Source: an uncultured delta proteobacterium (lineage in GTDB: Bacteria > Desulfobacterota > Syntrophorhabdia > Syntrophorhabdales > WCHB1-27). Taken from it: a DNA stretch of 64,000 nt. The first letter of the stretch is position 1. The number at the start of each line of letters is the position of its first letter. A program made the position numbers and the translations under genes. Where the stretch lies: contig CAWEPK010000017.1 in the NCBI GenBank assembly GCA_963810935.1, positions 160,001 to 224,000 on the forward strand. The letters run 5' to 3'. Under the pieces are notes generated by a model that saw nothing but the letters and a program-made list of their open reading frames with translations, searched no databases and had not been told where the DNA came from. This document shows, piece by piece, positions 46,616 through 50,282 of the stretch.

Positions 46616-47416
46616 TTACGACCTGATAACGATAAAGGCCATTATGAGGACGGCAAGGCCCACGCGGTAGTAAGCGAACACGTCGAGGGTGTGTTTCTTC
46701 AGGTAGTGGATCAGGAAGGTCAGGCTCGCCAGGCCCGCAATGAAGGCTGAAAACGTCCCCGCCGCAAAGACCGTGCTCTCGTCCCCCTCGAAGAGGGGCA
46801 TGTGGTGCATCTCCAGCAGCGCAACGCCGATGACGACGGGTATGGACAAAAGAAAAGCAAAATCCACCGCCTCCCTCCTCCGCAGGCCCAGCATTATGCC
46901 CATCGTTATCGTGATGCCGCTGCGCGATACTCCGGGGACAAGGGCGACGGCCTGGGCCAGGCCGATAGCGAGAGCGAAGGTGTAGGTTATTTTGTGCTCG
47001 CCCAGGTGAAGCCTCTCCGCGAGGATCATAAAGATGGAGACGACCACCAGGCTGAAGACGGAGACAAGCGGCGTCCTCACATAATACTCGATGAGGTCTT
47101 TGAAAAGGAGCCCGAAGACGACCGCAGGCACGGTCCCGAGCGCAATCTTCATCACCATTGAATCGCGCAGCGAGCGCGACTCCGTTACCTTGCGCAAGTC
47201 CTCCCGGCACATCTGGACGATCTTCCCCGTGTATATAGAGAGAAGGGCGAAGGCCGTGCCGAAGTGGACCATCACGTCATAATCGAGCTTGTCCACGTTG
47301 CCCGAGCTGACTTTGAAGAGCCACGGCACGGCTATCAGGTGGGCGCTCGAGCTTACAGGCAGGAACTCCGTAACACCCTGCATCGCTCCCACAAGGACGC
47401 TCTCTACTACGGTCAT
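46616..47416 (-). CDS. uppP: Undecaprenyl-diphosphatase (BacA)
   Basis: QGVTEFLPVSSSAH, VHFGT, PGVSRSGIT, FLLSIP, FAYYR. Confidence 0.95.
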   Translation of the reverse strand: MTVVESVLVGAMQGVTEFLPVSSSAHLIAVPWLFKVSSGNVDKLDYDVMVHFGTAFALLSIYTGKIVQMCREDLRKVTESRSLRDSMVMKIALGTVPAVVFGLLFKDLIEYYVRTPLVSVFSLVVVSIFMILAERLHLGEHKITYTFALAIGLAQAVALVPGVSRSGITITMGIMLGLRRREAVDFAFLLSIPVVIGVALLEMHHMPLFEGDESTVFAAGTFSAFIAGLASLTFLIHYLKKHTLDVFAYYRVGLAVLIMAFIVIRS

Positions 47417-47598
47417 CTTGTAACATTACCTCCGTGGAGACGCGAGCCGGCAGCCGATCCGCAAGCCGGCACGGTCAGAGTATATCGCCGTTCGAAACGG
47501 CAATCAACCGTTGCGGCGCAGGCCGCCTCGCAGACGTGTAAATCCTGTCGTTCCGTGGTAATATTACTTACGGACATGGACTCAAGGAGAGACAGGCC

Positions 47599-47871
47599 AT
47601 GACATTGAAGGAAAGGATCGAGCAGACCCTGACAGGCCTCAATCCGAGGCTCGAAAGCCTGGCAAACGGGTACGTCGAGCTGATGGACACCGACGAGGCC
47701 AAAAAAACGGTCACCCTGAAATCGTTCGGCGGCAGGCTTCACTGATGCGGGATGAACGCCCTCAGTTTGTGGGCGGAAAAGCTGCTCAAGGAAGAGGTGC
47801 CGGAGATCGCGGAGGTCAATATCGTCGACGTCTGCCAGTGCGGCGTCGATGAGCCCTTGCGCCCGGCTTGA
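47599..47871 (+). CDS. Small Nfu/NifU-C-like protein with in-frame TGA (probable selenocysteine at codon 49); not in the ORF track
   Basis: RBS AAGGAGA; MTLKERIEQTLTGLNPRLESLANGYVELMDTDEAKKTVTLKSFGGRLH-TGA-CGMNALSLWAEKLLKEEVPEIAEVNIVDVCQCGVDEPLRPA*. The Nfu-like pattern continues across the TGA (47743-47745). Confidence 0.7.
47757..47775 (+). promoter_or_regulatory. Candidate bacterial SECIS element
   Basis: CGCCC-T-CA-GTT-TG-T-GGGCG hairpin starting 11 nt after the TGA, with G first in the loop. Confidence 0.55.
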
Positions 47872-47933: not shown

Positions 47934-48536
47934 CTATGGACGGTTGATTAGCTCCGCAAGCGCCTCGTAAGGCTGAAAGCCGACAAGCTTGCGATTGCCA
48001 AAGATGAAGGTCGGAACTGCTTCTATGCCCAAGGCGCGGGACCGTGTCCAATCGGCATCCACGGCCTGTTTGAATCTCCTGGATAAGATAACTTGTCCGG
48101 CTTCCTCCTCAGGGAGACCGACGGATTCAGCAAGACGTATAAGTTCGCTCACCATGGCAATGTTCTTTCCTTCAACGAAATAGGCCCTGAAAACAGCGTG
48201 GTGGAACTCTTCTCCTTTGCCTTCCGACTCCGCCCACTTCGCAAGCTCCTGGGCGAGGCGGCTGTTGAATGTCATTGTGCGGCCGGATAAAGGCAGGGAG
48301 AGGTATTCCGCCACTTCCCTGAGGCGTTTCTGCATGGCGGAGATGTCCACATCCCTGCCGGCGAAGAGCTCTTCAAGGGCCAGTCCTCTTTCCGGCGTTT
48401 CAGGATGCAGAGGAAAGGCAAGCCATTTTACTTCTACGTCGTATTCCTTGATCAAGCGATCGGTACGGACCGTACTGAAATAGCACCACGGTCAGACGTA
48501 GTCGGAGAATACTTCAAGAATCGGGCGTTTTTCCAT
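47934..48536 (-). CDS. DsbA/FrnE-like thioredoxin-fold selenoprotein (UPWC)
   Basis: ATG 48536: MEKRPILEVFSDYV-TGA-PWCYFSTVRTDRLIKEYDVEV..., in frame with ORF 47934-48455 (FPLHPETP, NSRLAQ, FRAYFVEG, AVPTF). TGA at 48492-48494 takes the first Cys position of CPWC. Confidence 0.88.
48463..48475 (-). promoter_or_regulatory. Candidate bacterial SECIS element
   Basis: Minus strand GTACG-GTC-CGTAC hairpin; the loop starts with G, 21 nt after the TGA. Confidence 0.5.
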
Positions 48537-48546
48537 ATGTCCCTGC

Positions 48547-48975
48547 CTATCCTATCCTGATCTCGCCTTTGTCCGCGTCGACCGTCACGTGGTCTCCATC
48601 CGACAGAAGGGCCAGCGAGTCGCCGTCTATGTTGTCGACCACCGGTATCGTGGTCCGGTAGAACTTCTCAGCCAGTATCGCCCCGGTGGCCAGTATCGGC
48701 TCCGTGAGCCGGTTGACGATTGCGGCAGGGGCTGTACCGCACCGCGCAAGCTCCAGCATGTAGACGGCGCCGCCGGTGGAGCCTCTCCCCTCGGGAAAGA
48801 CCAGGACGGCGCCCGCTATCTTTCTGCCGTACAACTCGTGCCTCTTGTCGCTCACGATGCCCGTCCGGGGGTCGACTGCCCCGTAAAAGCCGAACGCCGA
48901 TTTTGACACAACCGCCGGGCCGCTCGCCTTCCCGCGGGTGATGCCCCTTCCTTTCAAGACCCTTTGCCGTGGCAC
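48547..48975 (-). CDS. Aconitase X small (swiveling, DUF126) subunit
   Basis: LKGRGITRGKASG, FGFYGAVDPRTG, HELYG, VFPEGRGSTGG, APAAIV; RBS GGAGG before GTG 48975. Confidence 0.85.
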   Translation of the reverse strand: MPRQRVLKGRGITRGKASGPAVVSKSAFGFYGAVDPRTGIVSDKRHELYGRKIAGAVLVFPEGRGSTGGAVYMLELARCGTAPAAIVNRLTEPILATGAILAEKFYRTTIPVVDNIDGDSLALLSDGDHVTVDADKGEIRIG

Positions 48976-48998
48976 GGGACCGCCTCCGTTATGCAGCT

Positions 48999-50225
48999 TT
49001 ACTTGGACGCCCGGGCCGCTGCGTCCACGCATTCCTGTATCGACCCGAAGATCACGTCCGATTGCACTTGCGACGGGGCATAGTAGGCGAACTTGCCCGA
49101 GTCCGTCATGATCGTCCTGAACTGCCATAGCTCCGTCGGGGATATCATCATGCACGTGTCGGAGGTGATCGTGGCCCCGGCAGCTTCTATGATCGATTTG
49201 TACCCCATCCGCCCGGCGAGCAGCTCCACGCTCTTATACGTGTATATCCAGAAATGGACGCCGTCTTTGACCCGCTTTCCTTCAAGCAGCTCCGCGACCC
49301 TTTTTACGTCCGTGATGCTGTAGTGGGGACAGCCCACCATGACCGCCTCGACATCGCCGCCGGCCACCGTGCACATCTCCCCCTTCGTCAGGTCCCTCTC
49401 CTCCCCGGAGAAGCTGAACGTTTCTTCCGGCGTATTCCCTCCGAACGCCTGCTCCACCGTCTGCGCTTCCGGCGTGATGCCCGCTATGTGATAAAGGGCG
49501 ACGCCTCCGCTGGCTGCTGCGGCCGCACCCATGGCGATATAATCTTCTACGACGGCCGTCTTCCTGAGCCCCGTTATCACAGGGATCCTCGTCCCCGCCC
49601 GCTTGCCCAGGAAATAGCCGAAGATGCGATAATCTTCGGGGGTCATCTTCTCCATCCGGACCTCAACGAGGATATTCCCCCTCCTGTTCTCAGAGACGTG
49701 GAGGCCGTGATAGGGCGTCCGTCCGCAGATAGCGGCAGCGAGATCGATGAAGGCCGTCTCCCTGTTGGACCTTGCCCCGAGAATCGAATTGGCAAAGACC
49801 ACTGCCGACGATTCGGTCCATGCCAGATGGTCGCCCTTCCGTGGCAGCAGGCCGCACAGGTAAGGCGTGCACGTCCAGCACGGTATCAGGCCGAGGTCGT
49901 TGACCGCCTTCACGATGCGGAACTGTTTCGCGGCGTATGCTTCCGGGACCTTGAACTCCCGCCACCTTTCGAGGTCCATGCCCGCGGGGTCGGTCGTAGT
50001 GGGGACGGACACTTTTGCCCCGAGGCCCGCAAACCGTTCCAGCACCTCGACGCCTGCATCGAGGATACCCTTGTATGTCGAAAGAATGGTGTGGCCGCTC
50101 TGGACAGGCACCATCCGCTCGGCCCGGAAGGCCTCCCCCACCGCCACGAGGATCTCCATCGCGAGCTTGCAACCCTCCCCCTGTTTCCCGTCCAGCATCC
50201 GCTGTTCTTCTTCGCTCAGGTACAT
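48999..50225 (-). CDS. Aconitase X catalytic (DUF521) subunit
   Basis: MYLSEEEQRMLDG, TTTDP, TCTPY, WTESSAVVFANSILGARSNRE, LYHIAGITPE, GCPH, DTC, TDSGK. Confidence 0.88.
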   Translation of the reverse strand: MYLSEEEQRMLDGKQGEGCKLAMEILVAVGEAFRAERMVPVQSGHTILSTYKGILDAGVEVLERFAGLGAKVSVPTTTDPAGMDLERWREFKVPEAYAAKQFRIVKAVNDLGLIPCWTCTPYLCGLLPRKGDHLAWTESSAVVFANSILGARSNRETAFIDLAAAICGRTPYHGLHVSENRRGNILVEVRMEKMTPEDYRIFGYFLGKRAGTRIPVITGLRKTAVVEDYIAMGAAAAASGGVALYHIAGITPEAQTVEQAFGGNTPEETFSFSGEERDLTKGEMCTVAGGDVEAVMVGCPHYSITDVKRVAELLEGKRVKDGVHFWIYTYKSVELLAGRMGYKSIIEAAGATITSDTCMMISPTELWQFRTIMTDSGKFAYYAPSQVQSDVIFGSIQECVDAAARASK

Positions 50226-50253
50226 TGCAGCCTCGCTTGTCCGTTCAAATGGA

Positions 50254-50282
50254 ATGCTATACGTCGCGCACGTGGTTGTCAA
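50254..50282 (-). promoter_or_regulatory. Putative sigma70 promoter of the acnX unit
   Basis: Minus strand TTGACA-N17-TAGCAT. Confidence 0.55.

Follow-up and report, generated by a model that had tools for sequence, protein, structure and literature searches.

The locus considered here raises the question whether a TGA codon in the middle of a short, otherwise open reading frame is a genuine stop or encodes selenocysteine (Sec) and, if it is decoded as Sec, what this residue could do in a protein resembling the Nfu carriers of iron-sulfur (Fe-S) clusters. The frame is located in a segment of 64,000 nucleotides from an uncultured delta proteobacterium, referred to below as the window. In the original prediction, made from the DNA letters alone, it was taken for a hidden selenoprotein gene. 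The elements on which that proposal was built are all present: the ribosome binding site, the ATG at 47599, the 90-codon frame and its single TGA at codon 49 lie where they were said to lie, the Nfu-like peptide strings quoted from both sides of the TGA are all found in the translation, and the hairpin announced 11 nt after the TGA does begin there, at 47757, with an apical loop GUU. Under translation table 11 the gene is reduced to a 48-residue ORF (47599-47745). The whole frame (47599-47871, +) very probably encodes a 90-residue selenoprotein of Nfu fold, in which UGA49 would be decoded as Sec with the help of a SECIS hairpin lying within the coding sequence, 11 nt downstream (Table 1). The site motif of this protein reads R-L-H-U-C; the CxxC motif is absent, its first cysteine being lost. 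GGAG-type sites precede the start codon in most of 21 relatives. The C-terminal CQC that had also been pointed out exists in the window's protein but is not a feature of the family, since CxC occurs in some sequences of its own and a sister genus only.

Table 1. Parts of the predicted selenoprotein gene (feature, positions in the window, strand, remark)
Shine-Dalgarno-like AAGGAG	47584..47589	+	9 nt ahead of the ATG
Whole coding sequence of the predicted Nfu-like selenoprotein, 90 aa plus terminal TGA (47869-47871)	47599..47871	+	ATG at 47599
Arg46 codon, column of the first Cys of CxxC	47734..47736	+	HMMER and hhalign alignments
In-frame TGA, codon 49, predicted Sec49, column of the second Cys of CxxC	47743..47745	+	TGA kept at this column among relatives' loci
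Cys50 codon TGC, immediately 3' of the Sec codon	47746..47748	+	Cys precedes Sec instead in the sister group
SECIS-like hairpin CGCCC-U-CA / GUU loop / UG-U-GGGCG	47757..47775	+	folding, pairing across relatives, synonymous sites
C-terminal Cys-Gln-Cys (CQC)	47833..47841	+	some subgroups only, not family-wide

Contigs assembled from other samples keep the TGA: two of them (X2 record 1 and X4 record 6) show no differences and another (X3 record 4) carries the whole stretch with one synonymous difference, at 47868. Among 61 related genomes, a set that includes the window's own, a six-frame search found 30 in which a strong match (E <= 4e-14) contains the TGA in frame; the remaining matches were weak and correspond to ordinary Nfu genes. 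All 20 of the relatives' loci that were fetched read GGR[LI][HNL]-TGA-Cys-Gly at the identical column, with a start codon upstream, and a conserved NALSLWAEKLLKE..PE stretch lies 3' of the TGA. The same column holds TGA in 12 of 12 loci L081-L092 and in all 31 true matches (L047-L077) from named MAGs, labelled Syntrophorhabdales, Syntrophorhabdaceae, Syntrophorhabdus or 'delta proteobacterium'. The two other loci of this genome collection (L078 and L079, of 33) match the typed-over motif GGRLHCCG merely by chance, in frames unrelated to the family. A scan of metagenomes was performed with the peptide pattern 3' of the Sec codon as the query, which is blind to that codon, so that Cys forms could have surfaced. 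It found 80 loci, with TGA at the Sec column in 78, TAA in two and a Cys codon in none. The codon of the homologues is TGA, not one for Trp, Arg or Gly, and the alignment of relatives shows that in-frame conservation continues 3' of it. The two TAA cases (L166, at 2645-2647, and L167, at the same position) are one sequence found twice (GGRLY-TAA-CGDF...), in which the frame after the TAA is intact and the hairpin slightly weaker; the sequence may represent a pseudogene or an error, or else a stop codon other than TGA may be decoded as Sec.

Two irregular loci deserve mention. In L046/L077 (G018:C83) the N-terminal half lies in another frame, through a frameshift or an assembly indel, and the same broken form is found as database protein P0025. 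A second TGA in genome G027 (L045/L081) was considered as a Sec codon and rejected: it is a true stop, at which close relatives terminate with TAA or TAG.

The bacterial SECIS element (bSECIS) is a hairpin located shortly 3' of the UGA and carrying a G in its apical loop. The hairpin of the window is closely downstream of the UGA and its loop begins with G. It comprises a stem (47757-47761 / 47771-47775), two inner pairs (47763-47764 / 47768-47769) and the apical loop (47765-47767), which reads GUY across the family. For a 43-nt piece the folding energy is -14.9 kcal/mol (z = -2.37), a stability matched by 3 of 200 shuffles; the fold energy of a longer, 68-nt piece is by itself not unusual (z = -0.69). 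Among 38 sequences of both subtypes described below, standard pairs occupy 95.5% of 266 cells. Neither the observed pairing nor the covariation score was reached by any of 500 shuffles, and slid registers pair in 25-54% of cells. Three of the seven pairs are invariant, two show one-sided variation and two show compensatory changes, namely C-G to U-A in the inner stem, brought about in two sequences by a switch between Leu codons, and CG/UA/GC at the base of the stem. Compensatory changes are few because most stem columns are invariant. Moreover, in 31 genes of the Sec-Cys type the third positions of Ala+5 (GCC, 31/31), Leu+6 (CTC, 31/31) and Leu+8 (YTG, 31/31) have an entropy of 0 bits, against 0.77-1.93 bits for 19 other conserved codons of the same genes. 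Synonymous sites frozen in this way reveal selection acting on the RNA, and they lie where a bacterial SECIS is to be expected. The hairpin of the Cys-Sec subtype is the same but one codon farther off, its stem starting 14 nt after the UGA instead of 11 nt. Short contigs of relatives from other runs reach at least 90% identity to the window over 47691-47783 only, that is, over the region of the TGA and the hairpin. Comparison of the hairpin with Rfam gave chance-level matches only and no matching family.

The genome of the window contains genes of the machinery for Sec insertion: tRNA-Sec, selA (568.6 bits) and selD (386.4 bits, with no internal stop) were all found. The tRNA-Sec genes number three, each with anticodon TCA and scoring 71 bits (G000:C4:30323-30414, C6:4921-5012 and C11:126664-126755). 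The selB-like matches are split over three frames (G000:C5:224288-226169, locus L009). Since selB is intact in four of five close relatives, the split is probably an assembly defect caused by indels; a truly broken selB would be the less likely alternative. TGA also terminates 19 of the 56 ORFs of at least 300 aa in the window, a set which includes some spurious ORFs; as an ordinary terminator, it is therefore not reassigned genome-wide.

Two side observations concern these genes. Each of the three tRNA-Sec genes is on a different contig, and one is located at the end of its contig; either the copy number is unusual or a repeat or contamination (7% by the quality figure) is responsible. A second selD copy (G000:C9:199342-200256) has one in-frame TGA, as in a Sec-containing SelD.

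The claim that this is a Sec protein thus draws strong support from the conservation of the TGA, the downstream frame, the frozen sites of the hairpin and the Sec genes, and the readings that deny Sec insertion jointly retain little probability. One of them, which takes the TGA for a true stop (with a pseudogene or a product of 48 residues) or for a sequencing error and the frame 3' of it for untranslated, would agree with the behaviour of gene callers, which terminate the ORF at this codon, with the pieces of selB in the window's assembly and with the TAA of the two metagenome contigs. It is nevertheless very improbable: the 41 codons downstream are kept in frame in every relative and under constraint at the amino-acid level, they have neither a start codon nor a ribosome site that would make a separate ORF of them, the 48 N-terminal residues by themselves amount to half an Nfu fold, and the contigs from other samples have the same TGA. 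Decoding of the TGA as an ordinary amino acid (Trp, Cys or Gly) might be suggested by two database proteins with W at the Sec column (P0003 and P0005), although these are most simply translations made under a table in which TGA is Trp, P0005 being nearly identical to loci with TGA. With TGA serving as an ordinary stop in this genome, including as the terminator of the gene itself, with a SECIS-like element under apparent selection at the right place and with Sec machinery in the genome, such a readthrough is exceedingly improbable.

In databases the family is largely hidden. When 1.84 billion representative proteins were searched exhaustively with a profile, 102 matched, and 34 of these were fetched. 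Twenty-one of the fetched proteins are N-terminal fragments ending exactly ahead of the TGA, which bears out the expectation that standard gene callers miss the gene. The others comprise two C-terminal fragments, the two proteins with W at the Sec column, one frameshifted copy and one paralogue in which Ala-Asn takes the place of Sec-Cys; the remaining proteins are canonical or unrelated. Annotation pipelines thus leave of the family N-terminal fragments of 46-95 residues, many of exactly 48 aa, which are called 'hypothetical protein' where they are named. Because the database entries are truncated, a word-indexed protein search returned one 68-residue fragment and nothing else. No orthologue with Cys in place of Sec was present among the 34 proteins fetched from the 102 representative matches or in the 80 metagenome loci; canonical Nfu proteins, for their part, have the second Cys of CxxC (Cys2) at the Sec column. 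Absence of a Cys orthologue from such searches is rare among selenoproteins.

The relationship with Nfu extends over both sides of the TGA. The Pfam NifU model (PF01106) matches residues 7-73, hence across the TGA, at a marginal 27.1 bits against a cut-off of 27.0, and a scan of NCBIfam gave TIGR03341 (NfuA, 21.2 bits) as its sole match. Comparison by hhalign of the family profile with a profile of 19 canonical Nfu proteins gave a probability of 99.5% with E 1.4e-22 over 79 columns. In the AF2 model (pLDDT 77.4) a helix and two strands are followed by the loop with the dyad and then by another helix and a strand; its Foldseek ranks 1-5 are 2z51, 2m5o, 1th5, 1xhj and 2jnv, all of them Nfu domains (TM 0.56-0.61). 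On these grounds the protein is a clear Nfu homologue, with a predicted fold matching that of Nfu domains. Three independent alignments place Arg46 on Cys1 and Sec49 on Cys2 of CxxC; the manual alignment of the original prediction, with Arg for the first Cys, TGA for the second and an extra Cys following, agrees with HMMER (against CnfU 2z51 and 1xhj) and with hhalign. The Arg46 column is nearly invariant (Arg in at least 90% of 21 aligned rows), with Lys, Ser or Thr in some further relatives.

Canonical carriers with the Nfu/NifU C-terminal domain (PF01106; for example Arabidopsis CnfU 2z51, the C-domain of human NFU1 2m5o and S. epidermidis SE0630 1xhj) are of the same size and share the helix-strand-strand-loop-helix-strand order, with the reactive residues in the same loop ahead of helix 2. 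In the new family, however, CxxC is changed to R-x-x-U-C (or x-x-C-U), Sec is obligatory, and a motif of its own, ALSLWAEKLL, is found 3' of the site. These genomes also have an ordinary GACxxC Nfu, so that the new protein is an additional, probably specialised paralogue and not a replacement. Ten canonical Nfu matches flagged with '1 TGA' in the scan of the phylum were set aside, being CxxC proteins with a terminal TGA stop and not CxxU forms; CD81 'CCG' matches in a PDB search were due to chance. A tandem paralogue in which Ala-Asn replaces Sec-Cys (RGILIANGINACSLW) was observed upstream of one Sec gene (L036, minus strand) and as database protein P0004; it is reminiscent of the second domain of CnfU, which has no CxxC.

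Of 401 genomes sampled across the phylum, 13 have the family. Outside the order it is found in three further families, where the site reads GGRLC-U-[GA]GPDVALSLW, with one case of RGC-U-NTGE. In this Cys-Sec subtype the Sec column is unchanged and the neighbouring Cys is 5' of the Sec. The 80 metagenome loci include 65 of Sec-Cys and 13 of Cys-Sec type. The conserved feature is Sec with one adjacent Cys, on either side. In all 13 Cys-Sec loci tested the gene directly follows one for a fusion protein of about 330 aa, in which an FMN-reductase domain is joined to an ArsC-like LMWP domain. The former has an invariant CxxCxxCx5C motif, which we take to be the 4Fe-4S-type motif of iron-sulfur flavoproteins (Isf). 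The latter combines a CX5R loop with two other invariant Cys residues and scores below the NCBIfam cut-offs for arsenate reductases. A histidine kinase gene with a rubrerythrin-like N-domain is often located 3' of the Cys-Sec gene, forming a conserved three-gene unit (L085-L091, L172, L173, L176, L180, L187 and L189); L085 also has a DUF166 gene upstream.

Gene contexts vary among subgroups. The gene of the window is solitary, with a divergent uppP/bacA gene (46616-47416, -) on one side and a convergent DsbA-like gene (47934-48536, -) on the other. Elsewhere, in some subgroups, a radical SAM gene is found directly upstream. In L034, L035, L038-L040, L138, L140 and L148 it is closest to TIGR03960 among the NCBIfam models, with a score of 259.6 bits that remains under the cut-off of 462.3 bits, the frame being cut by the locus end. 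In L083 and L069 it is of the AmmeMemoRadiSam kind (TIGR04337, above cut-off), as is probably that of L084, by its size and Pfam domain, and in L168 and L154 it is of no assigned family. An AIRS-domain gene lies downstream in L041 and in seven of the eight unique GRLLUCGHN metagenome loci, the eighth ending with its contig. The identification of this neighbour with SelD was rejected, its match being a weak purM-like one (88 bits against a cut-off of 236). Nramp adjoins three loci of the AIRS type (L041, L150 and L155), a SufB/SmsB-like gene is directly upstream in L092 and a ferritin gene directly downstream in L091. No transporter or regulator genes of the ars, mer or cop kinds occur beside any examined locus.

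What the Sec and its neighbouring Cys might do can be approached from the fold, from these contexts and from known dyads. The reading that we tentatively prefer is that the protein carries or repairs Fe-S clusters in a specialised role, ligating them through Sec and Cys; this reading is favoured, circumstantially, by the two chalcogen ligands that each protomer would have, as in Nfu, and by neighbours that are mostly concerned with Fe-S clusters or iron handling. According to this scheme, the ancestral CxxC would have been rebuilt, with Cys1 changed to Arg, Cys2 to Sec and a new Cys placed beside the Sec. With Sec at the position of Cys2 and a vicinal Cys (Sec-Cys here, Cys-Sec in the sister group), each protomer would still have two chalcogen ligands, and two protomers could hold a labile Fe-S cluster between them, as in canonical Nfu. 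The cluster might then be passed to, or repaired in, particular clients such as radical SAM enzymes and Isf-like flavoproteins. Sec in a family of Fe-S carriers has a precedent in the HesB/IscA-like selenoprotein, and 4Fe-4S clusters ligated by tandem Cys-Cys are also known. The scheme is weakened by the loss of the first Cys of CxxC and by the unusual ligand geometry of a vicinal pair. It is also weakened by the Cys-Sec genes, which always follow the gene for the ArsC-like thiol-reductase fusion and which a redox relay would suit at least as well; the window's own context, a gene alone between uppP and the DsbA-like gene, is silent on the matter.

Indeed, Sec serves redox catalysis in most known selenoproteins, and adjacent Cys and Sec form the redox motif of thioredoxin reductase. 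It is thus a serious possibility, albeit not the preferred one, that the Sec-Cys or Cys-Sec dyad works like that of thioredoxin reductase, closing to an eight-membered selenenylsulfide ring and reopening to selenolate/thiol, and that the protein, small and thioredoxin-like, relays electrons for partner reductases. The usual role of Sec, the requirement for a Cys adjacent to it on either side, and the closeness of L-C-U-G/A-G in the sister group to the GCUG of thioredoxin reductase would all agree with this. So would the position of the Cys-Sec genes directly after the FMN-reductase/ArsC-like fusion (13/13 tested), with its CX5R and two invariant Cys, thioredoxin-type ArsC enzymes requiring a dithiol reductant; the convergence of the window's gene on that of a DsbA-like UxxC selenoprotein; and the absence of a Cys orthologue from the searches, which is expected if selenol chemistry is essential. 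On the other hand, the fold and the position of the Sec are those of the cluster ligand of Nfu, and radical SAM, SufB-like, ferritin and Nramp neighbours need no thiol relay. The flavoprotein partner, which carries a 4Fe-4S-type motif, could itself be a cluster client. The dyad, moreover, lies in an internal loop and not in a flexible C-terminal tail. The Gly-Cys-Sec-Gly centre of thioredoxin reductase likewise has adjacent Cys and Sec, and the sister group reads C-U-G, but that centre belongs to the C-terminal tail of a large flavoenzyme, whereas here the pair is part of an internal loop in an Nfu domain of 76-98 residues. For the same reason the C-terminal Cys-Sec of pyridine-nucleotide disulfide oxidoreductases finds no counterpart in the window's protein, where the pair is internal. 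Vicinal thiol pairs are also classical binders of As(III) and Hg, as in ArsD. A chaperone that binds or delivers a soft metal or metalloid or S/Se species (As(III), Hg, Cu, persulfide or perselenide) by means of its Sec/Cys pair could therefore be imagined, all the more so with an ArsC-like neighbour in the Cys-Sec subgroup. CU/UC dipeptides are found in selenoproteins of organometallic chemistry, according to a preprint (bioRxiv 10.1101/2022.07.06.499078), which would point in the same direction. Such a chaperone seems unlikely in view of the lack of ars, mer or cop genes, the scores of the ArsC-like domains below the arsenate reductase cut-offs and the mostly Fe- or Fe-S-related contexts. 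Between a ligand and a redox role of the Sec/Cys pair the data do not decide, and the atypical chemistry evoked in the original prediction is one that we infer.

If the Fe-S carrier scheme is followed further, the family might constitute an obligately selenium-dependent branch of Nfu, where CxxC has given way to a vicinal Sec/Cys pair whose selenium ligates the cluster to be transferred. It would then be the first Fe-S carrier with a selenolate ligand, with radical SAM and Isf-type proteins as its clients in strictly anaerobic Desulfobacterota. In this extended form the proposal is doubtful. Were it true, selenium ligation may tune the lability or oxygen tolerance of the cluster beyond what Cys allows, and a tuning unattainable with Cys would explain why Cys orthologues were not encountered. 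In any case, the family places selenium within the Fe-S biogenesis toolkit, with the predicted Sec exactly at the position of a cluster-ligating Cys. The flip between Sec-Cys and Cys-Sec in sister groups represents a natural experiment on the needs of the dyad, and the conserved partners (radical SAM enzymes and the Isf-ArsC-like fusion) provide concrete, testable candidate clients.

The predicted selenoprotein family is new to current catalogues, as judged from their named families, tables and listed sequences. NifU and Nfu are missing from the 87 prokaryotic selenoprotein families in Table 1 of a 2022 review (PMC9312934), a table presented there as 'a complete list'. No mention of NifU or Nfu was found in the passages searched of the 2007 Olavius paper (PMC1976440), the 2022 Haft preprint (bioRxiv 10.1101/2022.07.06.499078) or the 2025 deep-Sep paper (PMC12013277). 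The sequence supplement of the latter contains no member of the family, and that of PMC5029168 no such sequence or name. A search of the literature, full text included, for links of NifU, Nfu or COG0694 with selenoproteins returned nothing relevant, and NCBIfam has no model for the family. The HesB-like (IscA-type) selenoprotein TIGR01911, which is listed in Table 1 of the review (PMC9312934), is likewise a selenoprotein within an Fe-S carrier family; its fold and family are unrelated, however, and the window's protein has no NCBIfam match to it.

Two further observations concern the neighbours in the window. The convergent DsbA-like gene (47934-48536, -) has the form of a UxxC selenoprotein gene, with a TGA at 48492-48494 and the site MEKRPILEVFSDYV-U-PWCYF...; table 11 leaves 173 aa of it. 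From its close resemblance to the 'DsbA-like protein' entries of the deep-Sep supplement (PMC12013277), its product can be assigned to a known family. Beyond it, two adjoining ORFs (48547-50282, -) correspond to the two parts, small (DUF126) and large, of an enzyme of the aconitase X type resembling cis-3-hydroxy-L-proline dehydratase, with matches below the NCBIfam cut-off.
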